In this document: positions 28,339 through 62,439 of the stretch, piece by piece
Position numbering within the stretch: position 1 is the first letter of the stretch
Layout: each line of letters begins with the position of its first letter
Assembly: GCA_041608535.1 (NCBI GenBank)
Contig: JBFISM010000001.1
Location: 30,139-94,138, forward strand
Direction of reading: 5' to 3'
Length of the DNA stretch: 64,000 nucleotides
Source: Acidimicrobiia bacterium
GTDB lineage: Bacteria; Actinomycetota; Acidimicrobiia; Spongiisociales; UBA5794
Notes under the pieces: model-generated
Database searches by the model: none
The model's input: only the letters and a program-made list of their open reading frames with translations
Told to the model about the DNA's origin: nothing
Program-made: the position numbers and the translations under genes

Positions 28339-29616
28339 TCATGGGGGTCGAGGCTGGGTAGTGACGGTTTGTCCCAACTTGGTGGTCCAGTGGTGGGTGC
28401 CGTCGGGGAGGCGGGTGTAGGTCCAGCCGTGCTGGTGACGGACGCAATGGTCGTGTCGGCAGAGCGGCGCCATGTCGTCGGGGTTGGTGACACCGGTTGT
28501 GGCGTATGGCGTGGTGTGGTCGAGGTCGGAGCCGATGGCCGGCATGCGGCATCCGGGGAACACACAGGTGCGGTGGCGGGTTTGGATGCGGCGTCGTTGC
28601 GTGAGGGTGGGGCGCCGCCGGGTGGCACCGGTCCCGATGGCATCGCCTGTTGCTGGGTCGGTGATGGTGAAGCGCCATTCGGCATCGGGAGAGTCGCCGG
28701 CGATCTGCCGGGCGATGTCGGCGATGACCGGGCCGTAGCCACCCAAGTCACCACATCGGTCGTCGAGTTCCGCCAGGGTGGCCAAATCCACCCGGAGATC
28801 GATCACCCCACCGCGATCTCTCCCGGTGCCGGTAGTCGACTTGTTCGGTGTGGACGAGTGTCCCTCGAGGAGATCCAAGAACACGTCGGCTCGGAGTTGG
28901 TCGATCGTTCGGGTCTCATCGTGGCGGCGCAGAGACTGCGCGATTCTGTTGATGCGGTCTCGGATACGAGCTACTCGATCCGGGGGCAGATCCCTCCCTG
29001 CGAGATGCACTGTGCCGTCTGGTGATGGGGTGGTCTCGACCCGTCGATCATGGAGGTCGGTGTGGTAGCGGTCCTTGGCATCGTCGGGGTTGGCCTCACA
29101 ACAGAGACGCCGTAACCGGGCACTGATCTGGCCTGTTGTCATCTCGGCGGCGTCGTCGAGGATCTGCGCAACCACCGCTTGCGCTTCGGTCGGCTGCAAA
29201 TGCCCAACGCCGTACATGATGGCTCCGGCGCGTCGCCGATCGATCCGCCCTGCGTGTAACGCGGCCAACACCTCGGGGTGCTCGCTGCCCAAGGCGTCTG
29301 CCATGGTCAGCTCTGCTTCAGCGGCGCGACGCGTGAGGTGTAGCGCCACCCTGATCTCCGCAACCGCCCCCTCACTCGCCGCCGTTGGATTGCGGTCTTC
29401 TGCGGCTACTGCGTCGGCGATGGCGATCATCTGTTCGTACATCTGCGCTTGATGGAACGCAACCTGCCGAGCGTGGTGCTGCAGCAGAGTGACGTGGTCC
29501 AGACCGGTGCGAGGGGTCAGTCCTGACAGCACGATCCCCAAGAACGGCCCCGGTCGCATCGCATCGAGCATCTCTCGGTCGAAGACGTCTGCCGTTGTTT
29601 CTATCGTGTCGAACAT
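28339..29616 (-). CDS. DUF222 + HNH endonuclease domain protein (REP13E12-like family)
   Basis: C-terminal HNH Cys/His cluster (CVFPGC...DLDHTTPY...CRHDHCVRH); start at MFDTIETTADV. Confidence 0.8.
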   Translation of the reverse strand: MFDTIETTADVFDREMLDAMRPGPFLGIVLSGLTPRTGLDHVTLLQHHARQVAFHQAQMYEQMIAIADAVAAEDRNPTAASEGAVAEIRVALHLTRRAAEAELTMADALGSEHPEVLAALHAGRIDRRRAGAIMYGVGHLQPTEAQAVVAQILDDAAEMTTGQISARLRRLCCEANPDDAKDRYHTDLHDRRVETTPSPDGTVHLAGRDLPPDRVARIRDRINRIAQSLRRHDETRTIDQLRADVFLDLLEGHSSTPNKSTTGTGRDRGGVIDLRVDLATLAELDDRCGDLGGYGPVIADIARQIAGDSPDAEWRFTITDPATGDAIGTGATRRRPTLTQRRRIQTRHRTCVFPGCRMPAIGSDLDHTTPYATTGVTNPDDMAPLCRHDHCVRHQHGWTYTRLPDGTHHWTTKLGQTVTTQPRPP

Positions 29617-29639
29617 ACGTTCGTATCGTATCGAACGGG

Positions 29640-30065
29640 TATGACACGAAACCCCCACGGCACACGACAACCGCGAAAGGGGCATCTCGCTTCACAAATC
29701 GCCACAGCTTTGCCAGCCACACCACCCCGCCCCAACGCCCACCAACCCCGACACGCCCTGGCCCACGCCCCCTCGTCGCCGGCACCACGAACCCGGCCAG
29801 GGAAACCCCCACCTACCCGTAACGGCCCCCCAAGCGCCTCCTCCATTCGCCGCACCGCCACCCAGCCCCAGTCCCTCCAACCAAGTCGAGCACCCCAGCC
29901 GTCGCCACCCACACCACCCAACCCCGACACGCCCCGGCCGACCCCGCATGCCTCCTTCGCCGGCCATACCACCCAGCGACCCACGTCCACCACCCTTCAC
30001 GCCCCAAGGCCCACTCCCCCTTTCGCCAGCACCACCGGCGGGAACCCCAGCAACGTCCCATGAAT
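29640..30065. repeat. C-rich/G-poor low-complexity non-coding region with imperfect ~50-nt direct repeats
   Basis: repeat cores cccaccaaccccgacacgccctggcc (29739..29764) and caccacccaaccccgacacgccccggcc (29902..29929); many C3-5 runs on plus strand (G-runs on minus); ORF 29641..30063 is Pro-rich with low GC3 and judged non-coding. Confidence 0.6.
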
Positions 30066-34020: not shown

Positions 34021-35249
34021 CCGCCACCACCGCACAGCGTTCCGCCCACCGGGCTCAACGTAAGCGCCGGCTTCGCCGTCTTGCCGGGCGCAGCAGCGCA
34101 TATCTCGTGCTGGTCGCATTCGCTGCGATCATGCTCTTCCCCTTCGCCTTCATGGTGGCGACCGCACTCAAGACACCCGAGGACACCTTCCGCTACCCGC
34201 CCAAGATCCTCCCTCGCACCGCCGCCACGACCGAGATCTCCGGCGAGACATTCGACGTCTACATGCTCGAAGTACCGGGCGAGGGGCAACGATCCGTCTA
34301 CCTGGCGGAAGCCGGTGTCGACGCGGGGCTCTTTGCGAATCTGGAGGATATCGACACCACGGTTGCATGGCCGTTGGACCTGGCTGCGGATACCGGCCGT
34401 ACCACCACGCTCGGTGGCGAGACCCTGCCGGTGTACGAGGTGCGTCTCGGTGACGAGACGGCCGAGTTGGCTCTCGTGCGCGGCACGGCGGTGGGCCGGT
34501 TCGTCGGGGTGGACGATCCAGAGATGATCACGTACGCAGTGGTGCGCACCGCTCCTGCTGCCGAGACGGTGGAGCCCGAGTGGCAGAATTTCTCGGAGAT
34601 CATCGAGTTGCGGGACTTCGACCGATCGCTCACCAACACGATCCTGGTGACGATCCTCGTCGTTGCCGGGACCCTCTTCACGTCGATCATGGGCGGCTAC
34701 GCCTTTTCCCGCCTGAGGTTTCCCGGTCGCGACCTCATGTTTGTCGGCTATGTCGGCTCGATCATGATCCCCTTCGTCGTCCTCATCATCCCGCTCTTCC
34801 GTCTCATGGTCTCTCTGGGCTGGGTCGACACCCTCGGGTCGCTGGTGTGGCCGTTCATCTTCAACGCGTACGGAACCTTCCTCATGCGTCAGTTCTTCGT
34901 GTCGATTCCGGGGGAGCTCGAAGAGGCCGCCTACATCGACGGCGCAAGCCGATGGAAGATCCTGTGGTCGATTTTCGTGCCGCTGTCGTGGCCGGCGATC
35001 GCAACCCTGGCGACGTTCATGTTCCTCTATGCGTGGAACTCCTTCATCTGGCCACTGGTATCGATCAATGGAGCGAACTCGGAGGACTTCGTCCTCACCA
35101 TCGCACTGCTGACGCTCGGTGGTCAGGCGGGTGAAGGGCCCAACCTCATCTTCGCTGCGATCGTCCTGTCGGTGATCATCCCGTTCGTCGTGTTCGTGTT
35201 TGCGCAGCGCTACTTCGTCGAGAACGTGGCGACCTCGGGCATCAAGTAG
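34017..35249 (+). CDS. sugar ABC transporter permease (MalG-like) with large periplasmic insert
   Basis: EAA motif EEAAYIDGASRWKILWSIFVPL; ATGA overlap with upstream permease; 410 aa. Confidence 0.8.
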   Translation: MTATTAQRSAHRAQRKRRLRRLAGRSSAYLVLVAFAAIMLFPFAFMVATALKTPEDTFRYPPKILPRTAATTEISGETFDVYMLEVPGEGQRSVYLAEAGVDAGLFANLEDIDTTVAWPLDLAADTGRTTTLGGETLPVYEVRLGDETAELALVRGTAVGRFVGVDDPEMITYAVVRTAPAAETVEPEWQNFSEIIELRDFDRSLTNTILVTILVVAGTLFTSIMGGYAFSRLRFPGRDLMFVGYVGSIMIPFVVLIIPLFRLMVSLGWVDTLGSLVWPFIFNAYGTFLMRQFFVSIPGELEEAAYIDGASRWKILWSIFVPLSWPAIATLATFMFLYAWNSFIWPLVSINGANSEDFVLTIALLTLGGQAGEGPNLIFAAIVLSVIIPFVVFVFAQRYFVENVATSGIK

Positions 35250-36486
35250 CCGGTGCGGCCAGGCTCCGCAGCCCCGCAAACAGCATCTGCTCCTGCTCGT
35301 GGAGTGCATGGACCGGAACAGTCCCCGGTGGCGCAAGTGGCTCTTTCACGTAGAAGCTGAGCCAATCCTGGATGCCGTGGCGGCCGCCACGCATGGCCAG
35401 ATCGGTGAACAGGACGAGATCGAGCATCACGGGGGCAGCGAGGATCGAATCCCGGCACAAGAAGTCGATCTTGAGCTGCATCGGGTAACCCAACCACCCG
35501 AACAGGTCGATGTGGTCCCAGCCTTCCTTGTCGTCGCCCTTTGGCGGGTAGTAGTTGATGCGCACCATGTGATCGATCCGGCCGTAGAGCTCCGGATGGT
35601 CTGCGGGTCGGAGCAGGTCTTCGAGCACACCCAGCTTGGTGACTTCCTTGGAGCGGAAGTTCTCCGGCTCGTCGAGCACCAGGCCGTCACGATTGCCGAG
35701 GATGTTCGTGGAGAACCAACCTCGGACCCCGAGACGGCGGCTTCTCAAGCCCGGAGCAATGATCGTCTTCAGGAGCGTCTGGCCGGTCTTGTAGTCCTTT
35801 CCGACGAGGGCCACCCGTTCTCGCTCCGCCAGCTCGACGAGCGCCGGGATTTCGGACGACACGTTGGGCGCGCCATTGATGTAGGCGCAGCCCGACCGGA
35901 TGGCGGCATAGGCGTAGATCTGGGACGGCGAGATCGCCGGATCGTCCTGCTTGAGTCCACGCTCGAATGCACCGAGTTCGAGGTGGGATTCGCTGCCCGG
36001 ACGGTACGCCTCGGTGCTCGCCGACCACAGAACGACTGCCCGATCGCAACGCTGCTTGAAGTGCTCGAGGTCCGCGATGATCGCCTCGGCCTGCTCCATC
36101 TTGTTGCTGATCCGTTTCACGTTGTCGACGGCGGTGAGCCGGCTCACCCAGCGCGGATCGAACACCGCCGGAGTGCTCTCCACACCGAAGAGGTCATCGG
36201 CCGTCTGCTGCAGCATGGCGGCGTCGAGCACACCTGCGGTGCGTGCGGCTGCCAGCGCCGTGGTCGCATACGGATCCCATGCCATGAACTCCAGCGAATC
36301 GAGCGCAGCGAGATCGACGACGTCGCGGATCGGCAGGTCATCGACGTGCCCCAACTCGGCGAGCGAGCCGACGGGGGCGGCGTGGCCGCGCCGGACGAGA
36401 GAGAGGCCGGCGAGCAGTGTCGACGTGGTGGCGCCGAGCCCGACGACGGCGACACCCAGCTTTCCGGTGGCAGTTTCTGTGGTCAT
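35242..36486 (-). CDS. ino1: inositol-3-phosphate synthase (myo-inositol-1-phosphate synthase family)
   Basis: MIPS family regions GQTLLKTIIAPGLRSRRLGVRGWFSTNILGNRDG and WDHIDLFGWLGYPMQLKIDFLCRDSILAAPVMLDLVLF; NAD-binding N-terminus GVAVVGLG; 414 aa. Confidence 0.75.
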   Translation of the reverse strand: MTTETATGKLGVAVVGLGATTSTLLAGLSLVRRGHAAPVGSLAELGHVDDLPIRDVVDLAALDSLEFMAWDPYATTALAAARTAGVLDAAMLQQTADDLFGVESTPAVFDPRWVSRLTAVDNVKRISNKMEQAEAIIADLEHFKQRCDRAVVLWSASTEAYRPGSESHLELGAFERGLKQDDPAISPSQIYAYAAIRSGCAYINGAPNVSSEIPALVELAERERVALVGKDYKTGQTLLKTIIAPGLRSRRLGVRGWFSTNILGNRDGLVLDEPENFRSKEVTKLGVLEDLLRPADHPELYGRIDHMVRINYYPPKGDDKEGWDHIDLFGWLGYPMQLKIDFLCRDSILAAPVMLDLVLFTDLAMRGGRHGIQDWLSFYVKEPLAPPGTVPVHALHEQEQMLFAGLRSLAAPAT

Positions 36487-39397: not shown

Positions 39398-40249
39398 TCA
39401 ACCCGACAGCTCCCGCATTCCCAACAACTCGACTGCTTGACCACCGACCCACTCGACGAACGTCCGCTCGGTGAACAACCGGTATTCGGCCACACGCCAC
39501 CAAGCATCCCGGGGATGGACCGCCTCGATGTCGCCCCGGGCCGCACAATGCAGCGAGACGTAGGTGAAGCCCGGTTCCGCCTCGCTCACCAGCCTGCGGA
39601 ACACGACGGGACACTCTTCATCTCGATAACTCAGCCCCATCCAAAAGCGATCGGCAAAGGCAAGCCCGGCGTCTTCGAGCCGTGCTCTGGCATGGTGCAG
39701 GGCGGAGAGATCGGAGTCGTCCCAGTTGACGTCGTTCACATAACCGGCGACGTCCGCAGGGAAGAGTGTGGGGATCTCGTATTCGACAGCGATCGAAACG
39801 GTGACCTCAGCCAGCTCGGGAACCAGAGCAGCACCCATGTGGTGATCGAGATGGGTCACCGTGATACCCGCATCCAGGGCGGTGTCGAGCTGGCGTCGCA
39901 GCTCCACGTCGGCCGCTTCCGCCGACACATTCACCCGCACCTCGTCGACAGTGGTCCACATGAATCCGTCCTCGTCGGCGAGTCCGGGGATCGATGTGAG
40001 GGGTCGCCACCGGAAGGCCGCGGATTCGCTCGTGAGCGCGAGGTGGACGCCCATGTCGAGGTCCGGTCGTCGGCGGCACAGCGCAGCCGTTTCGGCGAAC
40101 CAGCCACTCGGCACGATCGTCGAACCCGACATGACGAGCCCAGCGTCCCACACCTCCTCCATGGCCACGTTGCTCGCGTGGGAGCAGCCGACATCGTCCA
40201 CGTGGAACGCCAGTTGCGCCGGAGGATGGCCGAGCTGGGTCGAGGTCAT
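39398..40249 (-). CDS. ChbG/HpnK (YdjC-like) family carbohydrate deacetylase
   Basis: N-terminal motif LAFHVDDVGCSHASNVAMEEVWDAGLV matching YdjC-like DDFG...N; 283 aa. Confidence 0.65.
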   Translation of the reverse strand: MTSTQLGHPPAQLAFHVDDVGCSHASNVAMEEVWDAGLVMSGSTIVPSGWFAETAALCRRRPDLDMGVHLALTSESAAFRWRPLTSIPGLADEDGFMWTTVDEVRVNVSAEAADVELRRQLDTALDAGITVTHLDHHMGAALVPELAEVTVSIAVEYEIPTLFPADVAGYVNDVNWDDSDLSALHHARARLEDAGLAFADRFWMGLSYRDEECPVVFRRLVSEAEPGFTYVSLHCAARGDIEAVHPRDAWWRVAEYRLFTERTFVEWVGGQAVELLGMRELSG

Positions 40250-40318: not shown

Positions 40319-41323
40319 TCAGCCGGCACCGGCCATTGTGGTCGCCGCAGGGTCGCGATTTGCTGCGAACCAGGCGGCGAGCTCGGCAAAACCATCGTCC
40401 AGACTCACCTCGGGGAACCACCCGAGCGCCTGCTGGGTGCGCCGCTGGTCGAACCAGTGGGCGGTACTGAGCTGTTCGGCCAGGAAAGCCGTCAACGGAG
40501 GCTCTCCGCGACGGCCGGTTCGCAGCCATACCTGCTCGATGGCGGCACCGGCCGCTCGGGCCATCGCAGCAGGTATGCGAATGCTCGGCGGTGGCACACC
40601 TGCGGCGCGCAGGATGCGTGCCACCATCTCGGCGACAGGCCGGGGCTGGGCGTTGCTGACCACGAGCGGCTCACCATCGATGGCCGGGGCGCGGTCGAGC
40701 GCAGCGACGAGTGCGGAGGCAGCGTTGGTGATGTAGGTCGTGTCGATCAACGCCATACCGGAACCCACCGTTGCCAACCGCCCCTGTCGGGCGCGAGCGA
40801 CGATCCTCCCCACGAGCTGCGTGTCACCCGGCCCCCATACCAAGTGAGGCCGGATCACCGCAACCGCCATCGCCTGACCCGCCGCCTCGAGCGCAGACAG
40901 CTCGGCCAGAGCTTTGCTTCGGGCGTAGTGCCCGCGAACGCGATCGGGTGCGGCCGGGGTGGCTGGTGCGCCGACCAGAGCGTCGCCGTGATGGGCCACC
41001 GAAGGAGACGAGACATGCACGAAGCGGCCGGCCCCTGTGATCGCTGCTGCTTCGAGCAGGTTCATCGTGCCGATGACGTTGACCGCCTCGAACTCATCCC
41101 AGCCACCGACCACACCGACGCGAGCGGCCAGGTGGATCACGGCGTCGCAGCCAGTGACGGCATGCCGCACCGCAGCTACGTCGGTGATGTCGCCCAGTGT
41201 CTCGTCGCATCGCAGAGCGCTCGGACGGCGCTGCATGACACGCACATCGTCACCCCGCGCCAGCAGCCGCTCGGCGGTGGTGCGCCCGAGTAGTCCGGTA
41301 GCTCCCGTCACCAGCACCTTCAT
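40319..41323 (-). CDS. oleD: NAD-dependent epimerase/dehydratase (3-beta-HSD-like) reductase, OleD-type
   Basis: Rossmann GATGLLG, YxxxK (YARSK); start ATG 41323 overlaps stop of upstream oleBC (ATGA); ORF-track 198-aa N-extension is artefact. Confidence 0.7.
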   Translation of the reverse strand: MKVLVTGATGLLGRTTAERLLARGDDVRVMQRRPSALRCDETLGDITDVAAVRHAVTGCDAVIHLAARVGVVGGWDEFEAVNVIGTMNLLEAAAITGAGRFVHVSSPSVAHHGDALVGAPATPAAPDRVRGHYARSKALAELSALEAAGQAMAVAVIRPHLVWGPGDTQLVGRIVARARQGRLATVGSGMALIDTTYITNAASALVAALDRAPAIDGEPLVVSNAQPRPVAEMVARILRAAGVPPPSIRIPAAMARAAGAAIEQVWLRTGRRGEPPLTAFLAEQLSTAHWFDQRRTQQALGWFPEVSLDDGFAELAAWFAANRDPAATTMAGAG

Positions 41324-43905
41324 GGCGCTGCACTCCGAAGCCCGGCGCACACCTCGCTCGCCCACGAGGCCAACGCGATGCGATCGATCTTCGAGTTGTG
41401 TCTGATGTCGACCGGCAACTCCGGAACAACGAGAACTGCGGCCACATCGACCTCGGTCTCGCCACGAATCGCATCGGCCAGGTCGAGATCGGCCAGTCCG
41501 CTCACCCGCACCGGCATGGCCGGCTCGACCACGACCGCAACCACTTGGGCACCGGATGGACCCACCCCAACGACCGCAGAGCGCATCACCTCGTCCTGCG
41601 CGTTGATCGTTTGCTCGATGGGCACCGGCGTCACCGGGCCGGCCGCAGTTGTGACGACGTGGGCCAGCCGTCCTTCGATCCACAGCCGCCCGTGAGCGTC
41701 GAGATGCCCAACGTCGCCGGTGCGATGCCAGCCCGGAGGCGACGACGCCGCCAGCTCGGTCGCCCACAGCTGGTCGTAGCCGTCCCGCATGTGCTCGGCC
41801 CGCACACAGACCTCCCCGGTGACATCCGGATCCGTCACCAGCTCGACACCGCCGGTGCCTGGTGCGTCGAGGGGTGCGATCGCCAGGTCGACGCCGTCGA
41901 CGGGTCTGCCGACACACACCCCGCGACCCGCTTCCAGCTGCTCGAGTTCCTCCAGCGACACGTCGGCCACCGGGAGCACTTCCGTCATCCCATAGGGGGT
42001 GTGGATCCGGGCCGCCGGCAACACCCTGCGGACCGACCGCAACAGGCTGCGGTCGACCGGGGCTCCCGCGGACAGCACCAGCCGCACCCGGTGCAAAGCA
42101 GCTCGCTGATCGAGCGTCACTTCGCCGGCCGTGGCCACCACGTTGCGGAGTGCTGCGGGTGATGCGAACACCAGCGTGGCGTCGATCGCACTCACGGCCT
42201 CGGCGAGCTTCGTGGCGGTCAGTGTGGCCGGTGCCGTGATGTCCATGTCGGGCACGATCGAGGCGATACCCATGAGCGGCCCGTAGAGGGCGAAAGGTGC
42301 GAAGGCGGCGACAAGCCGGTCGGAAGGCTGGATCCCGTAGAGCTGCATCAGGGCGTCGCGCTGCGCCTCCACCTGGCGATGCTTGTACCTCACTCCCTTT
42401 GCCGGACCGGTGGCCCCTGAGGTGAACGCAACTGCGGCTATATCGTCGGGTGCGGGAAGCGGCAACGGCCCCACGTCGGCGTCACGCAACCCGGTCAGAC
42501 TGGCGGCACTGCGCAACGTGCGACGCAGCGGAGCCGCCAGCTCGGTGACGCTGATGCGCTCACCCGGCCACCGCATCGCGGTCGCCGCTGCCAGAGCCTT
42601 CACCCCGCCGATGAGGAATCGTGGTGCCGCACTTGCCAGCGCTGACGAGATACCGCGCCCGCCCAGACCAGCATCGACGAAGACGGCTACCCCACCAACG
42701 CGCCACACCGCGTGCAGCGCAGCCGCCAGATCGATGCCCGGCTCCACGAGCAGGGCAACACGGTCACCGGGGCACACCCCGTGGCTGAGCAAACCCGCAG
42801 CGACTTCGGTGACCCTGCGCTCCAGCTCGGCGAAGCTCGCCCGGCGTACCTCGCCATCGGCGATCTCGGCGATGGCCAGGTCCTCGTCCTCGGCCCGCTC
42901 CTGCAACGCAAGCCACACCCGACGTCGCTGACCCGTTGCGGAGTGGGCAGAGGCCGGGATGCCGTGACCCTCGTCCACGGGACGGGTGCGTCGGTCGGGC
43001 AACTCTTCCATCCAGCGCAGCACGACGCCGGCCACGTCTGCGTCCTCGGGTACGAGGTGGCCGGCGCCGGCCAAGCGGTGGGTCACGGCCGCGGGAAACC
43101 GCCGCTGCAGATCGCGGAGATACACGTCGTTGAAGATCGGATCCTTGCCTCCCCACACCAGCAGGGCCGGGACATCGGCGAGCTGTGGTATGAAGGCGGC
43201 GATCTCGGCCAGTGTCGCCGCGGTCGGATGATCGGAACGGAACGGGATGTCCGCCACGAAGTCGGCGATTCCCTTCCGCCGGTGCGCCGCCAGATAGGGC
43301 GACTCATACCCGCGGCGAACGGCGGCAGCGGGTCGAGGCCGTGACAGCGCCGTCGCTCCTCTCACGAACCACGGAGTGCGCTGACACAGCAGCCGCCGCA
43401 GCGGGGCGGCCTGGGCCAGTCGCAGCAGGGTCGCCCCGGGTGTCGGCTCCGGTTGGTCCACGGCGGTGTTCATCAGCACGATGCCCTCGAGCTGCGCCAC
43501 GTGCTGCACTGCCCAGCCAACCGAGACGGGTCCGCCCCAGTCGTGCCCCACCGTGACAACCCGACCTTCGATTCCGAGCGCAGCGGTGAGCGCAGACAGA
43601 TCGTCTATCCGATCGGCCAGCCGCCGCCGCCGGCCGGTTCGTTCCGAGAACCCCATCTCGAGTTGGTCGACGGCAACCACCCGGACGTCGGTCGGTGCCG
43701 CCGCCAGTAGATCGCGCCACAGATACGACCAGGTCGGGTTGCCATGCACACAGAGGATGGTCCGCTCCGGATCGACCGGTGCGGTATCGAGCACGTGCCA
43801 GGTGACTCCGTCTGCAACGGTGACGAGACGTGACCACTCGGGGGCGAGACCCGGGAGATCGTCCGGGGGAAGTTCGGCTGCAGCGGATGAACCGGGTATT
43901 ACCAC
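41320..43905 (-). CDS. oleBC: OleB-OleC fusion: alpha/beta hydrolase (haloalkane-dehalogenase-like) + AMP-dependent synthetase/ligase
   Basis: N-domain HGNPTWSYLWR and GHDWGG nucleophile-elbow; C-domain AMP-binding motif FTSGATGPAKGV, YGMTE; GTG start 43905 overlapping oleA stop; 861 aa. Confidence 0.75.
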   Translation of the reverse strand: MVIPGSSAAAELPPDDLPGLAPEWSRLVTVADGVTWHVLDTAPVDPERTILCVHGNPTWSYLWRDLLAAAPTDVRVVAVDQLEMGFSERTGRRRRLADRIDDLSALTAALGIEGRVVTVGHDWGGPVSVGWAVQHVAQLEGIVLMNTAVDQPEPTPGATLLRLAQAAPLRRLLCQRTPWFVRGATALSRPRPAAAVRRGYESPYLAAHRRKGIADFVADIPFRSDHPTAATLAEIAAFIPQLADVPALLVWGGKDPIFNDVYLRDLQRRFPAAVTHRLAGAGHLVPEDADVAGVVLRWMEELPDRRTRPVDEGHGIPASAHSATGQRRRVWLALQERAEDEDLAIAEIADGEVRRASFAELERRVTEVAAGLLSHGVCPGDRVALLVEPGIDLAAALHAVWRVGGVAVFVDAGLGGRGISSALASAAPRFLIGGVKALAAATAMRWPGERISVTELAAPLRRTLRSAASLTGLRDADVGPLPLPAPDDIAAVAFTSGATGPAKGVRYKHRQVEAQRDALMQLYGIQPSDRLVAAFAPFALYGPLMGIASIVPDMDITAPATLTATKLAEAVSAIDATLVFASPAALRNVVATAGEVTLDQRAALHRVRLVLSAGAPVDRSLLRSVRRVLPAARIHTPYGMTEVLPVADVSLEELEQLEAGRGVCVGRPVDGVDLAIAPLDAPGTGGVELVTDPDVTGEVCVRAEHMRDGYDQLWATELAASSPPGWHRTGDVGHLDAHGRLWIEGRLAHVVTTAAGPVTPVPIEQTINAQDEVMRSAVVGVGPSGAQVVAVVVEPAMPVRVSGLADLDLADAIRGETEVDVAAVLVVPELPVDIRHNSKIDRIALASWASEVCAGLRSAAP

Positions 43906-44918
43906 CGGATCTCGGTTGCGGAGGCGTTGATACCCGATCCGATGCCCAAGCACAGCACGCGATCGCCCGGCTGCAGCGTCTCTTGCGCACCGGCCAGAGT
44001 GATCGGCACCGATGCCGGGCCGACATTCCCCAGGGTCGGGAAGGTGAGGGGCACCTTGTCCATGTCGATGCCGAGGTTCTGGCACATCATGGTGGTGTGC
44101 ACCGCCGAGACCTGATGGATGATGTAGCGATCCATGTCGAGCCAGCCGAAGTCCTCTGCATCGACCCACGCCGTCTTCGCCAGCAGGATGCCGGCATCGA
44201 GCAGGCCACGCGAGTCTGTGCGCATCTGCTCGATCGTCCCCACACACAGCTTGTGATGACTGGTATCGGCCCGAGCGATGCCACCGAGCACCTCGTGTCC
44301 CTCCGGGTGGCGCTCGTATGACCCCAGCACCGCGCCGGCGCCACCCGACCCGAGCGTGAGCGTGGCAAACTCGGCGAACAGATCACCGATCTCGGTCTCG
44401 GGCCTCGCCAGCCGCTGCAACGTGCGCTCCTGGGTGTAGCGGCTGCCCTCCCCATCGACGATCAAGGCGTACTCGATCTGCCCGCTGTCGATCATGTTGC
44501 CTGCGATCTGCATCGCATTCATGAAGCCCAGACATGCATTGGAGAGATCGAAGTTGATGCACGAGCTCGGCAGCTCGAGCGCCTGATGCACACTGACGGA
44601 CGACGAGGGCTCGAGGCGCTCACGGCACACGGATGTGTCGATGAGCAGCCCGATCCGCTCCGGATCGATACCGGCAGCGTCGATGGCCTTGCGACCGGCG
44701 AGTGCCGCCGCATCCACGAAGCTCACGCCCTCGGGCCACCAGCGGCGCTCCTTGATGCCGGCCAGCGACTCCAGCAGCCCGGATTGAGCACCAAGCCGGG
44801 CGTACGTCTCGGCGAGCCGCTCATCGAATTCCTTTGATGTGACCACGATCGGCGCTTCGGCGGCAGCCACCGAGAGCAGTGCGGTGTCGGTGTGGGTGAA
44901 CGTGGCGTTTCCGGTCAT
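43899..44918 (-). CDS. oleA: FabH-like thiolase-superfamily condensing enzyme, OleA-type
   Basis: KAS III fold with active-site Cys in NACLGF, His/Asn region HQVS...GNVGPAS; 339 aa; first gene of oleA-oleBC-oleD operon. Confidence 0.75.
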   Translation of the reverse strand: MTGNATFTHTDTALLSVAAAEAPIVVTSKEFDERLAETYARLGAQSGLLESLAGIKERRWWPEGVSFVDAAALAGRKAIDAAGIDPERIGLLIDTSVCRERLEPSSSVSVHQALELPSSCINFDLSNACLGFMNAMQIAGNMIDSGQIEYALIVDGEGSRYTQERTLQRLARPETEIGDLFAEFATLTLGSGGAGAVLGSYERHPEGHEVLGGIARADTSHHKLCVGTIEQMRTDSRGLLDAGILLAKTAWVDAEDFGWLDMDRYIIHQVSAVHTTMMCQNLGIDMDKVPLTFPTLGNVGPASVPITLAGAQETLQPGDRVLCLGIGSGINASATEIRW

Positions 44919-45095
44919 GCGAATCTTTCTGGGGGACGGAAGGCTCTCTGGGGATGAGGAGGGACGGGCCGGCGCAGCTCGTATGGAGAGCCATCTCGTG
45001 CCGGTGCCGGTGAGGCGAGCAGAACGAACCCGGGGATCTTAGCGGGGCTCCGAGTCGTTCCAACAGTTCGCCCACCCGGTGGCTCCGGCTCCGCA

Positions 45096-46586
45096 TCACA
45101 GCCTGCCGTCGGCGATGGCTGCCATCACCTCCGCAGCGCGCTCACGCACCGCATCGACGTCCGACAGCCGGTGCAAAGTGTGATACTGCCGTGCCATTCT
45201 GGCGTTTTCGCCGAGTGTCTCCTCGTTGCGGGCGAGAAAGTCCCAGTACAGCGTGGTGAACGGACAGGCGTCCTCGCCGGTGCGCTTCTTCGGGTCGAAT
45301 CGGCACCCGGAGCAGTAGTCGCTCATGCGATTGATGTAGGCGCCACCTGAGACATACGGCTTGGTGCTCATCCTCCCACCGTCTGCCCACAGTCCCATGC
45401 CCATGACGTTGGGACCCATGACCCAGTTGCCACCGTCGACATAACGTGCCCGCATCCAATCCCGAACCAGCCGGGGATCCATGCCGTACAGGTTGGCGAA
45501 GTTCGCCAGCACCATCAGTCGCTGGATGTGATGGATCCAGGCGCGCTCTTCCAGACCGTCGAGCGCGATCGCGACACACCGTATATCAGTGGTGGCCGTG
45601 CCTTCCCACACCGGCGGCAGCTTGCGGGCGTGGTCGAGGACATTGGCGTCATACTGCTCGGGCCACATCCAATAGATGCCCCAGACGAACTCTCGCCATC
45701 CGATGATCTGCCGGATGACACCCTCCGCCGAATTGATCGGGACGTCGCCGGCCCGGTACGCCGCCTCGACCTCGTCACACACCTCCTCGGGCCCGATCAG
45801 GCCGAGGTTGAGATACGGGCTCAACAGAGAATGAGCCAGATGCCAGTTGTCCGCGAGCATGGCATCTTCGTACGGTCCGAAGATCGGGAGCACTTCGGAG
45901 ACGAAATGACGCAGGCGTGCCAGGGCGGCCCGTCGCGAGGTCGCCCACCATCCCACCGGGTCGGCACCCGGAGCTTCGTCGGGTAGCTCGGCGAGAACCG
46001 TCGCGTCGAGCTCGTCCAGCCGGCTCCGCACCGGCTCCGGCCAGGTTCCTCCGTCGGCCGGCGAGGGCTCGCGGTTGTCCTCGTCGTAGTTCCATCGCCC
46101 CCCCGCGGGATGATCGCCATCCATCAGATAGCCGAGTCGTCTGCGCTGCCACCGATAGAAGTCCTCCATGCGCAGCGTGGTCCGATCCCCGACCCAATCT
46201 GCAAAGTCGTCACGGTGGCAGAGAAACTGGTTGGACCGCGTGAGCTCGATGTCGAGCGCAGAGACGAGCGCAGCAACCTCCCGAGAGTTCGGCTCGGTGG
46301 CCACCACCCGGTCGGGGCTGAACTCCTCACGGTGAGCTTCCAACCCGCGGCGTAGCGTTGCCGCCTTCCGATAATCGACCTCGTATCCCGCAGTGCGCAA
46401 CTCATCGGCGAATCGTCGCATCGCGGTCATCACCAGGTGCAGGCGCTGCCGATGAAAGCCGGGGCGGTTCACCATCGCTGCGCTCTCGACCATGAGGACC
46501 CGATCCTGAGCCGGCTCGGTCGAGTCGAGGGCGCCGATCCCACGATTGAGCTGATCACCGAAGACCCACACGGTGGTTCGCGTCAT
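45096..46586 (-). CDS. cryptochrome/photolyase family protein (FeS-BCP/(6-4)-photolyase-like with 4-Cys cluster)
   Basis: photolyase-type N-terminal alpha/beta domain (VWVFGDQL) and FAD-binding helical domain; Cys in CDEVEAAY, CVAIALD, YCSGCRF...DACPF consistent with Fe-S cluster class; start at MTRTT (46586). Confidence 0.7.
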   Translation of the reverse strand: MTRTTVWVFGDQLNRGIGALDSTEPAQDRVLMVESAAMVNRPGFHRQRLHLVMTAMRRFADELRTAGYEVDYRKAATLRRGLEAHREEFSPDRVVATEPNSREVAALVSALDIELTRSNQFLCHRDDFADWVGDRTTLRMEDFYRWQRRRLGYLMDGDHPAGGRWNYDEDNREPSPADGGTWPEPVRSRLDELDATVLAELPDEAPGADPVGWWATSRRAALARLRHFVSEVLPIFGPYEDAMLADNWHLAHSLLSPYLNLGLIGPEEVCDEVEAAYRAGDVPINSAEGVIRQIIGWREFVWGIYWMWPEQYDANVLDHARKLPPVWEGTATTDIRCVAIALDGLEERAWIHHIQRLMVLANFANLYGMDPRLVRDWMRARYVDGGNWVMGPNVMGMGLWADGGRMSTKPYVSGGAYINRMSDYCSGCRFDPKKRTGEDACPFTTLYWDFLARNEETLGENARMARQYHTLHRLSDVDAVRERAAEVMAAIADGRL

Positions 46587-46656
46587 GACACGTGTCCCGT
46601 ACGAGTTCTCACAACCAACGACTCCCGATAGCGTGACGGCCGACGATAGGACGGTG

Positions 46657-47388
46657 ATGACCACTCCCATCCACCCGGGACGACCGCCCCACCACATCGA
46701 GCATCCGGTGATGATCCAGCAGTGGCGATCCCTGACGTACCTGCACTGGCCATATCCCCCCGAGCAGGTTCAAGCGACACTGCCGGATGGGCTCGAAGTC
46801 GATCTCTTCGATGGCATGGCCTGGGTGGGACTGATCCCCTTTCACATGGTGGACATTGCGTTGCCGCGGATGCCGCCGATCCCGTACCTGGGCACATTTC
46901 CCGAAACCAACGTGCGCACGTATGTGGTGGGCCCGCACGGACCCGGCGTGTGGTTCCACTCGCTCGACATCAACCGTCTCCTCCCGGTGCTGGTGGCACG
47001 GCTGATCTACCGCCTGCCGTACATGTGGAGCAAGATGGCCGTGGTAGAGCGCAACCAGAGCGTGCGGTACACGTGTGTGCGACGCTGGCCGGCCTCGCCA
47101 GGAGCTACTTCGACCATCTCCGTGGAGATCGGCCAGGCGCTCGAAGAGCCGACCGCTTTCGAGCACTTCCTCTCCGCTCGCTGGCGGCTCTACACCAAGC
47201 TCGGGAAAAGACTCCTCGCAGGCGACGTGGAGCATGAGGTGTGGCCGTTACATCATGCCCGGGCGACGCGCGTCGACGACGGTCTCGTCGCCGCCACCGG
47301 ACTACCGGCCCCCGTTGCCGACGCCCACGTGATGTACTCCCCCGGCGTGACGGTTTCGGTGGGATGGCCCAAGATCGTCCGAGGCTGA
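46657..47388 (+). CDS. DUF2071 (YqjF-like) family protein
   Basis: 243 aa; conserved WRSLTYLHWPYP and GLIPF...GTFPETNVRTYV regions; start taken at in-frame ATG 46657 to avoid overlap with divergent photolyase start. Confidence 0.6.
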   Translation: MTTPIHPGRPPHHIEHPVMIQQWRSLTYLHWPYPPEQVQATLPDGLEVDLFDGMAWVGLIPFHMVDIALPRMPPIPYLGTFPETNVRTYVVGPHGPGVWFHSLDINRLLPVLVARLIYRLPYMWSKMAVVERNQSVRYTCVRRWPASPGATSTISVEIGQALEEPTAFEHFLSARWRLYTKLGKRLLAGDVEHEVWPLHHARATRVDDGLVAATGLPAPVADAHVMYSPGVTVSVGWPKIVRG

Positions 47389-49534: not shown

Positions 49535-49681
49535 ATGTCAGTTCCCGACACCCACGGCGAACGCGGCGCCACCATGGTGGAGTACGCCATCATGCTTGCG
49601 CTCATCGCAACCGTATCCATGGTCGTGATCACCACGATCGGCCAGGATGTGCTCGGCGCCTTCGCCTCCGCGAAGTGGTGA
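49535..49681 (+). CDS. flp: Flp family type IVb pilin (48 aa)
   Basis: canonical Flp prepilin motif ERG/ATMVEYAIMLALIATVSMVVITTIG; too short to appear alone in ORF track (it is the C-terminus of artefactual ORF 48515..49681). Confidence 0.75.
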   Translation: MSVPDTHGERGATMVEYAIMLALIATVSMVVITTIGQDVLGAFASAKW

Positions 49682-50007: not shown

Positions 50008-53000
50008 TTGCTGCCGTCTCCGATGAGCCATCCAATCGCAACGCCGTTGACCATCGTGGCGAGACCCCGCCTCGAGGAGCTGCACCGCCTTCTCGGCGAG
50101 CGACGGCTCTGCCTGATCTCTGCCGGTGCCGGCTACGGCAAGACGACCCTGCTCGGGGTATGGCGCGAGCAGGCGCCGACGGGCTTTGTGACGTGCACAG
50201 AGGGGCACGGCAACCTCGGTGTGTTCGCCACCACGGTGACGAACGCGCTGCGCGCCTGGATTCCCGGTCTGCAACCGCGAACGACAGGGGTCGAGTCGAT
50301 GAGCGGCCCGGCGGTGGCGTCCGAGCTGATCGCCGCAGCAGCGCCGCTGATGCAACGTCCGATCCGTCTCTTCTTCGACGATGTCGATGAACTTCGCACG
50401 GGTGAGTCGGCTCGCTTTCTCCAATCTCTGGTGCTGCAGGCTCCGCAGAGCCTCGGGATCGTGCTGGCAGGCCGTAGCGAACCTCCTGTACGAATCGCCA
50501 GACTCCGCGGTCGCGGCCAGCTGCTCGAGCTGACGGCTGCCGACCTTCGCTTCACCTTCGACGAGACGACTCGGTTCGTTGCCGCCACGGCTCCGGAGGT
50601 GGCCGGCTACGTCGACGAGATCCATGCAACGACCGGGGGCTGGCCCGCGGCGGTCCGGCTCACCGTCGAGGCGCTCCGCGGCAGCCCAGTCGACGATCGA
50701 CTCCGCGTGCTGGAACGGGCGCGCCGACCCGGGGGTACGTTGTTCGCCTATCTGGCCGATGAGGTCATCGACAGCGAGCCTCCTCCGGCCAGAGAGATGC
50801 TGCGCACGCTGGCGGCGATCGGGGCGGCTCCCGATGCGCTCGTGCTCGACGTGTGTGGAGGAGAAGAGACTCTGCTGGCGGGACTGCAGCGGCGCGGATT
50901 GTGTGTGGCCAGCGGACCAGACATCAGCGTGCCGCCACTCGTGGCGGACTTTCTCGCCTCAGACGCTCCCCTCGAGGCGACAGAGCGGTTGGGTGCGCTC
51001 GAACGTGCCGCCCACTGGTTCTGCGATCACGGAATGCACCGCCGGGCGCTGGAGCTCGCCACCCGACGGGGGGCAACCGAGCTGGCCGCTGCCATCTGTC
51101 TCGAGCACGGGGAGCAGATCGCCGACTCGGGAGGAGCCGCAGCTGTGCTGGCAGCGCTGCGGACGGTCGACGAGAAAGACCTCACACCGGCGCTCTTGCG
51201 ACTGAAAGCCAACGTGCTGCACACCACGGGCGATTGGGATGCGGCCCTGGCGATCTATGAGGGATTGGACGGCGGCGCCGCCAGCATCCCGGCCGACCTG
51301 GCCTGGCGCATGGGTCTGATCCACCTCCTGCGAGGAGATCCCCACACTGCGACTGAGGTGTACCGGCGTGCGGACATCACGGCCCAGGACGCCGATACCG
51401 CCATCCTGCTCGGCTGGTGGGCGTCGGCCGCCTGGATCACTGCGGAGACCGCTCACTGCCGTTCGTTGGCAAATGAATCATTGGCAACAGCTCAGCGGGT
51501 TGGCGATGACCGCGCCCTGGCGGTGGCGCACACGGTGCTGGCGATGGTTGCAGCTGTGGACGGAGACCGCCACGGCAACGAGGCGCACTACATCGCTGCT
51601 CTGGATCACGCCAAACGGGCCGACGACGTCTTGCAGCAGGTGCGAATCCATGTCAATCGCGCCAGCCACCATCTGGAGGAGGGGCACTATCTCGAATCGA
51701 TCGCGGAGAGCGACCAGGCGCTGACGCTCGCCGAGCTCGGCGACATCGTGCCATTCAAGGCAATGGCGCTACTCAATCGCGGTCAAGCGCTGTCGCGGCT
51801 GGGGCGGTTGGAGGCGGCAGACGCCGATTTCGCCGCAGCCCACAGCGAGTGGGAACGAACCCGTTCCCGGCATGTCGCCTATGCATTGAATGCATTTGGC
51901 GAGAGTCGAACCGCACGGGGAGTCCGGTCGCTGGCGCGATCCGCTCACGAGCAGGCGCTTGCCATCGCGGAGGCGAACTCAGACACACAGGCGCTCATCC
52001 CGGCGCTCGTCGGTCTGGCCAAGGTCACCATCGACGACGATCCGGCGACGGCGCGGCTGCTGGCGAAACGAGCCGCCGACCACGGCCCGAGCCTCGGAAC
52101 GGCCGCGGCGCTGCTTGCCCTGGGGTGGGCCGAGCTGGAGCTGGGCAACACCGAGGCGGCGATCGACAACGCTCGCCGTGCCGGTGACATCGCCAGAGCA
52201 CGGCGGGACCGCGCCGCTACCGCAGAAGCGCTGGAATTGGAAGCGTTTGCTGCGCCCGATGAGGCCAAGCCCCTGCTCGACGAGGCGCTGGAGTTGTGGG
52301 GCAGCCTCGACGACCCCCTCGGGCACGCCAAGTCGCGTCTCGCCCGGTGTCGGCTGCTCCACGCTGACATCGAGGAGCTCGATGAGCTGGCGGCTCTGTT
52401 CGGCAGGCTCGGTGCCCGACATCTCGCCGCCGAGACGAGGGCGATGGTCGAGCGTCTCGGTGCGGAACGACGCAACGCCGTCGTCATCGAAACCCTCGGG
52501 GGCTTCCGCGTTGTCACCGGCGGCGAGCCGGTTCCCGCTTCGGCGTGGCAGTCGAGGAAGGCAAGGGATTTGTGCAAGCTGCTGGTGACCCGGCGGGGCA
52601 AACCGGTCCATCGGGAGGTGCTGCTCGAAGAGCTGTGGCCCGGCGAGGACGGGCAGAAAACGGCGAACCGACTCTCTGTCGCCCTGTCGACGCTCCGCAA
52701 CGTCTTCGACCCCGAGAGGACTCACGATCCCGACCACTACATCGCAGCAGACAAGACATCCGTCGCGCTCGTGCTCGAAGCACTCGAGATCGACGTGGAG
52801 CGATTCATCTCCGCCGCTCGTGACATCCTGGAACACCCGGACGCATCCGAGGCGCGGCTGGAACGCATCGAAGCCGCCTATCGCGGAGATTTCCTCGAGG
52901 AGGATCCGTACGCCGACTGGGCGGTATCGCTGCGGGAAGAGGCGCGAAGCCTGTATCTGCGGCTGGCCCGCAGGCTTGCCGAGCTCACCAGCGAGCGTGG

Positions 53001-53229
53001 CGACCACGATGCCGCAGCCCGCTATCACCTCCGGGTTTTGGAACGTGACCCGTACGACGAGCCTGCCCATCTCGGATTGGTGAGCGCCATGGCCGCCACG
53101 GGCCGGCATGGGGAGGCGCGCCGTCTCTACCGAGCGTATTGCGAGCGGATGGCCGATCTCGACGTCGACCCGCATCCATTCCCCGCCGAGGGACACGCCG
53201 CCACCCAGCCGGCATTCAGGAAAACCTAA
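50008..53229 (+). CDS. large STAND NTPase-TPR regulator with C-terminal SARP (OmpR-type wHTH + BTAD) domain
   Basis: Walker A LISAGAGYGKTTLL near N-terminus; central Ala/Leu-rich TPR-like repeats; C-terminus (about 52480..53229) has wHTH FRVVTGGEPV...LCKLLVTRRGKPVHREVLLEELWP and BTAD EAAYRGDFLEEDPYADWAVSLREEARSLYLRLARRLAEL...ARRLYRAYCERMADLDVDP; 1073 aa. Confidence 0.8.
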   Translation: MLPSPMSHPIATPLTIVARPRLEELHRLLGERRLCLISAGAGYGKTTLLGVWREQAPTGFVTCTEGHGNLGVFATTVTNALRAWIPGLQPRTTGVESMSGPAVASELIAAAAPLMQRPIRLFFDDVDELRTGESARFLQSLVLQAPQSLGIVLAGRSEPPVRIARLRGRGQLLELTAADLRFTFDETTRFVAATAPEVAGYVDEIHATTGGWPAAVRLTVEALRGSPVDDRLRVLERARRPGGTLFAYLADEVIDSEPPPAREMLRTLAAIGAAPDALVLDVCGGEETLLAGLQRRGLCVASGPDISVPPLVADFLASDAPLEATERLGALERAAHWFCDHGMHRRALELATRRGATELAAAICLEHGEQIADSGGAAAVLAALRTVDEKDLTPALLRLKANVLHTTGDWDAALAIYEGLDGGAASIPADLAWRMGLIHLLRGDPHTATEVYRRADITAQDADTAILLGWWASAAWITAETAHCRSLANESLATAQRVGDDRALAVAHTVLAMVAAVDGDRHGNEAHYIAALDHAKRADDVLQQVRIHVNRASHHLEEGHYLESIAESDQALTLAELGDIVPFKAMALLNRGQALSRLGRLEAADADFAAAHSEWERTRSRHVAYALNAFGESRTARGVRSLARSAHEQALAIAEANSDTQALIPALVGLAKVTIDDDPATARLLAKRAADHGPSLGTAAALLALGWAELELGNTEAAIDNARRAGDIARARRDRAATAEALELEAFAAPDEAKPLLDEALELWGSLDDPLGHAKSRLARCRLLHADIEELDELAALFGRLGARHLAAETRAMVERLGAERRNAVVIETLGGFRVVTGGEPVPASAWQSRKARDLCKLLVTRRGKPVHREVLLEELWPGEDGQKTANRLSVALSTLRNVFDPERTHDPDHYIAADKTSVALVLEALEIDVERFISAARDILEHPDASEARLERIEAAYRGDFLEEDPYADWAVSLREEARSLYLRLARRLAELTSERGDHDAAARYHLRVLERDPYDEPAHLGLVSAMAATGRHGEARRLYRAYCERMADLDVDPHPFPAEGHAATQPAFRKT

Positions 53230-57549: not shown

Positions 57550-58701
57550 TCAGCCGACGAGCTGCACCGTCTCGGAGTATCCGATGTCGTCGACCGCACC
57601 CGAGCCGTTGAGCTTCACCACCATCAAATCCGCTTCCACGGGCGAGGGGAGAAACCGCTGGGCGACCATACCGTCCCCGGCAAGCGTGAGCTGCACCTCC
57701 GCAACGAGGTTGCCGTCTCGGTACAGCCACACAAACGCATCCTCCTCCACATCGACGAGGGTCACATCTGTGACGGTCACCAGACCCGTGTCTCCGAAAT
57801 CCTCGAAGTCGAGCACCAGGGTGCAGTCCGTCGTGATGTCATCGGCGTCCTCGGCATAGCTGGGTGCATCGTTGGCGCTCGCACCCGTGGGGCACGGTCC
57901 CCCGAAATCGTCCGGATCGGATGCGTCACCGTCCTCAGAGATGATGAGCACGCCTCCCTGGCCGGGGAGGAACAGATCGTTGTCTCCACCCGAGCAGTTG
58001 GACGCCGGCCCTCCGCCACAGGTGGCATCGAACACCATCGGACCGAAGGCCGTGTTCGATCCAATGGCCACCTCGCCGCTGATGTGGTCGCCGCTGATGC
58101 CATATCCGGCAGAGACCTCACTCGGCTGATCACCAGCGGGGATTCCCTCGAAATCGATCACGGCGCGACGTTTCAGCGAGATGGCGGTCGCCGACACGTC
58201 ACTGGTTTCGAAGCCGAGGACACGAGCGAAGAGGTGTTCCACCGGGTTGCCATATGCCGCGGAGCGGCGGGTGGTCACTTGCACGGCATTGAGGGGAAGA
58301 CCACTGGCCACGAATGTTCTCGTCGACGTGTCCCAGTTCCCCACCACGACGTCGGGCGCTTTGGTCAGGGGACCAGCTCCGTCATCGTTGCGATCGGCGT
58401 AGTCGATGGCGATCACCTCGGCCACCGTTGCAATTGGCAGCCCGCGCGCTGCGGCCGTCGAAGCAGCGTCTGCCGCCGTCTGCAGCTCGGTCCGCACCAC
58501 ATACAGGTGCCCGACATCAACCGCCAGTGCCGCAAAGCCGAAGATCACGAAGAGGAGCAGGCCCACGAAGATCGCCGTTGTCCCCGATTCCATTTCGCCT
58601 GATGCGACACGCCCCCGATGGAAGGAGCCGGTGGGCACCTTTGTCGAAAGAGGTGTGGCGTCGTCCGACGACCGCACCGGCAGCAGCTGCGTCTCCCCCA
58701 T
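57550..58701 (-). CDS. TadE/TadG-like pilus assembly protein with large C-terminal extension (paralog 1)
   Basis: Tad N-terminal domain TTAIFVGLLLFVIFGFAALAVDVGHLYVVRTELQTAADAAS; start ATG 58701 with GGGGGACGGGG SD; C-terminal domain with DATCGGGPASNCSGGD motif. Confidence 0.7.
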   Translation of the reverse strand: MGETQLLPVRSSDDATPLSTKVPTGSFHRGRVASGEMESGTTAIFVGLLLFVIFGFAALAVDVGHLYVVRTELQTAADAASTAAARGLPIATVAEVIAIDYADRNDDGAGPLTKAPDVVVGNWDTSTRTFVASGLPLNAVQVTTRRSAAYGNPVEHLFARVLGFETSDVSATAISLKRRAVIDFEGIPAGDQPSEVSAGYGISGDHISGEVAIGSNTAFGPMVFDATCGGGPASNCSGGDNDLFLPGQGGVLIISEDGDASDPDDFGGPCPTGASANDAPSYAEDADDITTDCTLVLDFEDFGDTGLVTVTDVTLVDVEEDAFVWLYRDGNLVAEVQLTLAGDGMVAQRFLPSPVEADLMVVKLNGSGAVDDIGYSETVQLVG

Positions 58702-58996
58702 GGTCCCCGTCCCCCAATGGCAGCAAATGAATGGTTGCGCCTCGCAGGGACCACGTAGCTGTGAGGTGCTGTATAGGTCTGAAGACGCATCATAGAGGCC
58801 AATGCGATGTACGACCGACGGGAGAGCGTTCACGCTGGGTTTAGCGGTGTGTCCGTCGTACGAGCGAGGTCAGAAAGACGCTTGGGACGGAAGAGATTCA
58901 CTTCCAACAAGGCACTGGGTCCGGCGTGTACCGGACCCAGTGGCCAGGGAGGTGACATGCGGCCGTGCGGTGACGCCCTCGTCTACCGCTACTGCC

Positions 58997-61478: not shown

Positions 61479-61497
61479 GGGGGTGCGACCTTTCGGC

Positions 61498-62430: not shown

Positions 62431-62439
62431 GGCGTCCTC

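Follow-up and report, generated by a model that had tools for sequence, protein, structure and literature searches.

Does an uncultured Acidimicrobiia bacterium carry a complete pathway for head-to-head olefin synthesis behind genes whose public names go no further than 'alpha/beta fold hydrolase' or '3-oxoacyl-ACP synthase III'? The question is raised by a 64,000-nucleotide (nt) stretch of contig JBFISM010000001.1 (assembly GCA_041608535.1), hereafter the window, whose positions are used for all coordinates below. Within positions 40319-44918, three translationally coupled genes, oleA, oleBC and oleD, are found on the minus strand. A preliminary description of this DNA had placed an oleA-oleBC-oleD cluster at exactly these coordinates, leaving the strand unstated. 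We consider it very probable that the region is an intact operon encoding the complete olefin pathway; gene structure, family placement, the conservation of catalytic residues and the conservation of synteny are observed directly and are presented in the following paragraphs.

The first gene, oleA (44918->43899), has an ATG start and encodes 339 amino acids (aa) according to the open reading frame (ORF) call. It is followed by oleBC (43905->41320), a single fusion ORF of 861 aa that starts with GTG, and by oleD (41323->40319), which starts with ATG and encodes 334 aa. The overlapping stop and start codons that had been described for the first pair, and the ATGA coupling described for the second, can both be read at the junctions: the first one is ...CG GTG GTA A, with the GTG of oleBC 7 nt inside the end of oleA, and at the second one the stop codon of oleBC and the start codon of oleD share the ATGA. 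Public assemblies contain gene calls for the identical three proteins with unchanged starts, and the same gene order occurs on independent contigs, including NCBI assembly GCA_041634275.1. As full-length homologues cover 97-100% of the query in the alignments, the genes are free of frameshifts and truncations. The third-position GC of the ole genes (0.76-0.83) is like that of the neighbouring genes, and the E-values of their Pfam and NCBIfam domains (1e-130 to 1e-22) are well past chance.

The solved proteins closest to the oleA product are those of Xanthomonas campestris OleA (3ROW, 3S21, 4KU3, 5VXF and others), which align with it end to end (E 6e-81, 275 bits), while the best FabH-type structures reach at most 75 bits (E ~1e-20) and the identity to Escherichia coli FabH (reference sequence identical to 1HN9_A) is 26%. 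The protein also passes NCBIfam NF006720, with 434.9 bits for a cutoff of 285. Its residues Glu103, Cys129 (within the motif NACLGF), His268 and Asn298 align with Glu117, Cys143, His285 and Asn315 of the X. campestris enzyme, numbered as in the 358-residue PDB chains. According to PMC8180931, Cys143 of the latter is the nucleophile that becomes acylated, His285 and Asn315 make up the oxyanion hole, and Glu117, provided by the other subunit, is the proposed base, the E-P motif being a mark of OleA enzymes. This motif is present in the window protein, where Glu103 is followed by Pro104; E. coli FabH, by contrast, has Phe at the position of Glu. Moreover, no variation is seen at Glu103, the Pro that follows it, Cys129, His268 or Asn298 among 73 OleA homologues of related loci. 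The assignment of 43899..44918 as oleA is supported, and its product, closer to OleA than to FabH, would be a head-to-head, non-decarboxylative Claisen condensing thiolase. A search of the 64-kb window for a second OleA-like gene, as in the pair of the lipstatin type, found none.

The protein encoded by oleBC comprises two domains. The N-terminal one, OleB (43000..43848, minus strand; residues 20-302), is an alpha/beta hydrolase similar to haloalkane dehalogenases of subfamily III, with Pfam Abhydrolase_1 at approximately residues 49-290 and the motif HGNPTWSYLWR at residues 54-64. Its best solved relative is the subfamily III enzyme DhmeA (8CKP, E 7e-34), whose pentad N63/D129/W130/D258/H286 is aligned with Asn56, Asp122, Trp123, Asp255 and His283 of the window protein, and these five residues are invariant across 81 OleBC homologues. 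The DhmeA paper (PMC10503415) assigns X. campestris OleB to subfamily III and reports that the pentad is conserved there. The equivalog models of NCBIfam for dehalogenases, by contrast, remain below their cutoffs (113.5 vs. 466, 109.3 vs. 241 and 84 vs. 265 bits). By homology, the domain is probably a beta-lactone decarboxylase, and a beta-lactone, rather than a haloalkane, is its expected substrate if X. campestris OleB is taken as the model.

The C-terminal domain, OleC (41353..42864, minus strand; residues 348-851), is an adenylate-forming (ANL) enzyme, in which Pfam AMP-binding covers residues 348-710 (E 2e-51). Its motifs are FTSGATGPAKG at 494-504 (TSGATGPAKG at 495), YGMTE at 638, TGD at 729 and a C-terminal Lys839. 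The motif positions that were tested, namely the core residues, are conserved in the same 81 homologues; in fact, the sole substitutions at tested OleBC positions are Thr729 to Ser in five of them and Gly730 to Ser in one. The top NCBIfam match is NF006754 (387 bits), followed by the olefin beta-lactone synthetase models NF045786 and NF045785, which come second and third among 100 families with a match and are the only function-specific ones near the top; all three models match over their full length. An ATP-dependent beta-lactone synthetase is the activity that this ranking suggests. Between both domains lies a flexible linker (42934..42987, minus strand; residues 307-324), with a predicted local distance difference test (pLDDT) score below 50 and no conserved residue in the consensus of the 39 homologues on which an AlphaFold model of OleBC was built. 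The model as a whole (pLDDT 87, predicted template modelling score 0.81) has two confident domains with this low-confidence segment between them. When it was used for a fold search, only generic ANL enzymes were recovered (target-normalised template modelling score ~0.8), so this search does not discriminate between functions.

The last gene encodes an extended short-chain dehydrogenase/reductase with Pfam Epimerase and 3Beta_HSD, in which the glycine-rich motif GATGLLG is found at residue 7 and the YxxxK motif, as YARSK, at residue 133. Its top two NCBIfam matches, both full length, are NF042422 (oxyalk_red_OleD, 297 bits) and NF042423 (241 bits), and the protein is predicted to be a 2-alkyl-3-oxoalkanoate reductase. 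The three proteins bear out most of what the preliminary description had read in them: the motifs it quoted (NACLGF, HGNPTWSYLWR and FTSGATGPAKG) are all present in the translations, the condensing enzyme falls with the characterised OleA of Xanthomonas and not with FabH, the dehalogenase-like hydrolase fused to an AMP-dependent synthetase shows the subfamily III pentad along with matches to the olefin beta-lactone synthetase models, and the supposed NAD reductase has an OleD model as its best match, together with Pfam 3Beta_HSD.

The conservation of the gene order is equally clear. Among 80 loci with an OleBC relative, taken from species-representative genomes and checked by tblastn, an oleD homologue is found directly downstream of oleBC in all of them, and an oleA homologue directly upstream in 76; the same three-gene order is also present on metagenome contigs. 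Loci of Rothia, Microbacterium and Arthrobacter are among the 80. It is the layout given for the actinobacterial operon (oleA, oleBC, oleD) in PMC7158056, and Smith et al. (PMC7064751) describe oleBC fusions as typical of Actinobacteria, mostly Micrococcales. Fifteen neighbours of the operon in the window (eight on the low-coordinate side and seven on the high-coordinate side) were tested for linkage to ole, and none of them is linked to it in the 80 loci, which argues that the three genes form a self-contained module.

Several observations weigh against reading this module as a working olefin pathway. Every enzymatic activity, the expression of the genes and the chain length of the product are inferred. 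For OleC, the olefin beta-lactone synthetase models NF045786 and NF045785 give 293 and 273 bits, and their cutoffs (900 and 850) are not reached; both scores of OleD likewise fall short of the 580-bit cutoff of its models. For OleB, the NCBIfam search gave no specific model, only those for dehalogenases, and the searches of the PDB returned no OleB, OleC or OleD structure; as a consequence, the assignments of these three rest on homology ranking, motifs and context. The literature searched reports no member of Acidimicrobiia tested for olefins, and it does report several genera of Micrococcales with intact ole clusters that make only traces of them (PMC7158056). As for the scores, the Ole proteins encoded at Rothia, Microbacterium and Arthrobacter loci served as controls, olefins having been measured by gas chromatography-mass spectrometry in these genera (PMC7158056). 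Their family ranking against NCBIfam is the same, and their OleBC and OleD scores are equal to or below those of the window (OleD of these Micrococcales reaches 267-282 bits, also under 580), which suggests that the shortfall reflects narrow models trained on Proteobacteria and not a different function. The olefin beta-lactone synthetase models thus appear to be too narrow for Actinomycetota. Only for OleA do the controls exceed the 435 bits of the window protein on NF006720, with 444 in Microbacterium, 436 in Rothia and 459 in Arthrobacter.

These points have to be considered together with other explanations of the locus. That a generic FabH, a fusion of a haloalkane dehalogenase with a fatty-acyl-CoA ligase, and a sugar epimerase lie side by side by chance is hardly credible, even though the names in use are generic ones (NF006720 is a '3-oxoacyl-ACP synthase III', NF006754 a 'fatty acid CoA ligase family protein', and the public name of the fusion is 'alpha/beta fold hydrolase'), since OleA scores 200 bits higher against solved OleA than against FabH and carries Glu in place of the Phe of the latter, the dehalogenase models remain below their cutoffs, and translational coupling with a near-universal three-gene synteny is incompatible with chance adjacency. 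Best matches to generic families outside an ole context would have spoken for such an origin, as had been anticipated in the preliminary description; what is found is OleA over FabH and synteny in 76 to 80 of the 80 loci. The only other biochemical reading to be taken seriously, that the product is a beta-lactone lipid like lipstatin or nocardiolactone and that the hydrolase domain is inactive or otherwise employed, is also quite improbable. The chemistry of OleA, OleC and OleD is indeed common to the olefin and beta-lactone pathways (PMC7064751), and neither the fold nor the motifs of OleC can separate the two outcomes. However, it is the lack of oleB that defines beta-lactone clusters (PMC7064751), while the window has an OleB-type domain fused to OleC that keeps all five residues of the pentad, invariant in its homologues. 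Furthermore, the 64 kb hold only one OleA-like gene and not a pair such as LstA/LstB, there are no tailoring genes (P450, glycosyltransferase or formyltransferase) adjacent to the operon, and the same architecture is present in genera measured as olefin producers. With an intact OleB domain and a single OleA, the features by which beta-lactone natural product clusters are recognised are lacking.

Somewhat more weight, although still little, is given to the possibility that the genes are intact but the operon is silent or active only at trace level, with little physiological or environmental effect. Strains of Arthrobacter, Pseudarthrobacter, Curtobacterium, Clavibacter and Dermacoccus that carry ole clusters yield traces only (PMC7158056), and this makes the earlier prediction of alkene production by this organism too strong. 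In addition, no recognisable promoter was found upstream of oleA. The 177 nt on its 5′ side (44919..45095, minus strand), the sole non-coding gap at that end of the operon, are presumed to be the promoter region, an assignment that we only infer because no sigma-70 consensus or other signal was found there. This gap is without an Rfam motif, a terminator or an inverted repeat of at least 8 nt (arms at most 40 nt apart), and the sole repeat of at least 8 nt in the stretch spanning it measures 9 nt and lies inside the upstream gene. Neither a promoter nor a terminator consensus was found, but the sigma-70 scan was not designed for the promoters of high-GC Actinomycetota. Against a silent operon, the catalytic residues are conserved, the strong purifying conservation between lineages (mean column identity of 68%) points to selection for function, and a relative with an OleBC of 60% identity has the cluster at the same place in the chromosome. 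An intact operon for olefin synthesis is, consequently, the reading that we prefer.

If this reading is correct, the chemistry can be carried over from the characterised Xanthomonas and Micrococcus systems, as recounted in papers that summarise the primary work. Cys129 of OleA would be acylated by one fatty acyl-coenzyme A (acyl-CoA), Glu103 of the partner subunit would deprotonate the alpha-carbon, and a second acyl-CoA would then be joined without decarboxylation, giving a 2-alkyl-3-keto acid. OleD would use NAD(P)H to reduce this product to the 2-alkyl-3-hydroxy acid. The OleC domain would adenylate the carboxylate of the latter using ATP and close the beta-lactone, and the OleB domain (Asp122/His283/Asp255) would open and decarboxylate this lactone, producing a cis internal alkene of n+m-1 carbons and CO2. 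The overlapping stop and start codons couple the translation of oleA, oleBC and oleD, and the B-C fusion would tether the last two steps, presumably handing the labile lactone on directly. Micrococcales olefins derive from branched fatty acids of C14-C17 (PMC7158056). The C27-C29 alkenes that the preliminary description expected for this organism must be dropped, as their size was borrowed from Micrococcales: the length of the product is governed by both the acyl-CoA pool and the channels of OleA, and it is not predictable from the gene sequences.

A photolyase-related gene (DPRP family; 45096-46697, minus strand) lies 177 nt upstream of oleA, and a YdjC-like gene (carbohydrate deacetylase family; 39398-40249, minus strand) is found 69 nt past oleD, both of them on the strand of the operon. 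They were considered as parts of the ole system and rejected, being unlinked to ole in the 80 loci. As there is no terminator motif between oleD and the YdjC-like gene, the latter may nevertheless be co-transcribed. The longest ORF of the photolyase-related gene (533 aa) overlaps a facing DUF2071 ORF (46573-47388, plus strand) by 125 nt; the public calls for both are shorter (496 and 243 aa), so that the true starts are probably internal. Further away, a DUF222 protein of 448 aa (28339-29685, minus strand) shows no evident link with what surrounds it, namely an aldehyde dehydrogenase and a DeoR regulator with a sugar ABC transporter. No tRNA or RNA recognised by Rfam was found across the entire 64 kb.

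Where the operon comes from can be approached through the host. A search of 185,579 species-representative genomes with peptide patterns from the window did not recover the source genome, the best match having 56% identity. For the FtsH encoded at 11870-13804 (minus strand) of the window, the best matches with a name come from metagenome-assembled genomes (MAGs) of Acidimicrobiia, with identities of 65-77% (one match is labelled Actinomycetota only), and unnamed matches reach 85%. A myo-inositol-1-phosphate synthase gene (35242-36486, minus strand) is consistent with an Actinomycetota host. The nearest OleBC proteins outside the window protein's own 90% cluster are 55-60% identical to it and, where named, come from Acidimicrobiia or Actinomycetota MAGs. 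In neighbour-joining trees (without bootstrap), OleA and OleBC are nested in a clade of MAG sequences, most of them with an Acidimicrobiia label, to which a freshwater group of the acI/Nanopelagicales type is the sister, with Micrococcales and Kineococcus outside; these trees are congruent with the taxonomy. Furthermore, on a metagenome contig with a 60%-identical OleBC, a BTAD-TPR regulator (72% identical) and a Flp pilin gene precede oleA-oleBC-oleD. In the window, a Flp-type pilin gene of 48 aa (49535-49681, plus strand) adjoins a BTAD/TPR/winged-helix regulator of 1073 aa (50008-53229, plus strand), and Tad pilus genes (two TadE/G-like, a KaiC/DnaB-like ATPase and two T2SS-F) occupy 57550-63942 on the minus strand.

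GC content is slightly raised at 40-44 kb, and horizontal transfer was considered for this reason. It was rejected, as the excess is in codon positions 1 and 2 while GC at the third position is normal, and as the phylogeny and the neighbourhood shared with a relative speak against it. Native codon usage, the trees and the shared neighbourhood argue for vertical inheritance within Acidimicrobiia and not for a recent transfer from Micrococcales; the data support a chromosomal ole operon that would have been inherited vertically in this uncultured lineage. Outside the 90%-identity clusters to which they belong, the Ole proteins have no recovered relative that is more than about 60-64% identical. 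Relatives of FtsH reach 85%, whereas the closest OleBC outside its cluster reaches 60%; in the relative with this OleBC, the neighbouring regulator is 72% identical. It appears that the Ole proteins are evolving rather quickly, or else that closer relatives are without them.

The distribution of the operon raises a broader possibility. The 120 best OleBC matches listed are all full-length fusions (810-1041 aa) with both Pfam domains, and the lineage names given by their sources are only Acidimicrobiia, Actinomycetota or Actinomycetia. Freshwater MAGs of the acI-Baikal/Nanopelagicales type (loci L011-L017) have the oleA-oleBC-oleD unit, complete in most of them and cut by the contig end in L012, L014, L016 and L017, and their OleA proteins are 60-64% identical to that of the window. 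It is conceivable, and we suggest it tentatively, that the operon with the OleBC fusion is an ancestral and widely kept trait of uncultured Acidimicrobiia and acI/Nanopelagicales-type lineages instead of a speciality of Micrococcales. If this were true and the operons were active, the long-chain alkenes of the 'cryptic' hydrocarbon cycle would have a source so far unrecognised among the most abundant Actinomycetota of water and soil. In the literature searched, we found nothing linking ole genes with Acidimicrobiia or Nanopelagicales. A recent lake metagenome study assigned oleC to Deltaproteobacteria and the PVC group, with Nanopelagicales appearing only among the hydrocarbon degraders (PMC10176705).

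Some of the related loci deserve separate mention. The records CAMDKJ010000087.1 (L013), CAMBQX010000031.1 (L016) and CAZJSY010000061.1 (L020) have unexpected titles: two of them are titled 'Bifidobacterium breve' and their ole loci cluster with acI/Nanopelagicales sequences, and one is titled 'uncultured Burkholderiales' and its ole locus clusters with Acidimicrobiia. These titles are likely wrong taxonomic labels, or else the contigs were mis-binned. In addition, the four closest genome-derived relatives of OleBC (56% identity; L003, L004, L005 and L020) have oleBC-oleD, but the 8 kb upstream contain no canonical oleA. In L003, an Acidimicrobiia MAG (JBBQTI010000003.1, 11844-14583), there is a convergent gene pair downstream of oleBC-oleD, and L004 is similar. 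One gene of the L003 pair encodes a KAS-III-like protein of 364 aa that is only 27% identical to the OleA of the window and yet keeps the OleA-type Glu-Pro, Cys, His and Asn, and the other encodes a separate AMP-binding enzyme of 544 aa. This may be a variant of the ole system, in which a divergent OleA is accompanied by an additional adenylating enzyme.

For the window itself, the results provide a secure functional annotation, a complete olefin pathway, for genes whose public names do not reveal one, and they extend the operon with the OleBC fusion to deep-branching, uncultured Acidimicrobiia, whereas the literature searched calls the fusion typical of Micrococcales. They also provide a divergent OleA, the enzyme that sets the chain length of the product, for enzyme engineering, and they hint that abundant environmental Actinomycetota may contribute biogenic alkenes.

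Compared with known systems, the closest parallels are found in enzymes and operons that have already been characterised. The window proteins resemble those of OleABCD from X. campestris: OleA aligns end to end (with the E-value given above) and all four catalytic residues are common to both, OleC and OleD match the NCBIfam models trained on Xanthomonas over their full length, and the OleB domain has the subfamily III pentad that the Xanthomonas OleB conserves. By contrast, OleB and OleC are separate proteins in Xanthomonas and a single polypeptide in the window, and the scores are well below the equivalog cutoffs, reflecting divergence at the phylum level. No solved proteins are closer to the N-terminal domain than the subfamily III haloalkane dehalogenases (DhmeA 8CKP, DmbC and DrbA), whose pentad is identical; unlike them, this domain is fused to an adenylating enzyme inside an ole operon, and the dehalogenase family models are not satisfied. 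The oleACD-type clusters for lipstatin (LstABCD) and nocardiolactone also use enzymes of the OleA, OleC and OleD types to proceed through a 2-alkyl-3-hydroxy acid to a beta-lactone, but they lack OleB, whose domain is fused and intact in the window, and the lipstatin cluster has two OleA homologues (LstA/LstB) where the window has a single one.

Among operons, those of Micrococcales are the most similar. Beller 2010 is reportedly the source for the three-gene ole operon of Micrococcus luteus. The operon of M. luteus and other Micrococcales (Surger 2020, PMC7158056) has the same gene order, the OleB-OleC fusion, and overlapping, coupled genes, and the loci of Rothia, Microbacterium and Arthrobacter agree with the window in their Pfam and NCBIfam matches and score at a similar level. 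Identities to the Micrococcales and Kineococcus proteins that were retrieved are 42-55% for OleA, 45-53% for OleBC and 49-59% for OleD, in a comparison that covers the 80 loci, M. luteus itself not being among them. The view that the OleBC fusion is characteristic of Actinobacteria stands, while its likeness to Micrococcus, which had been drawn in the same breath, holds only at the phylum level, because the host is an uncultured Acidimicrobiia bacterium. The operon is, in short, of a known and well-understood type that leaves the understanding of the pathway unchanged, and its host is the only unusual point.

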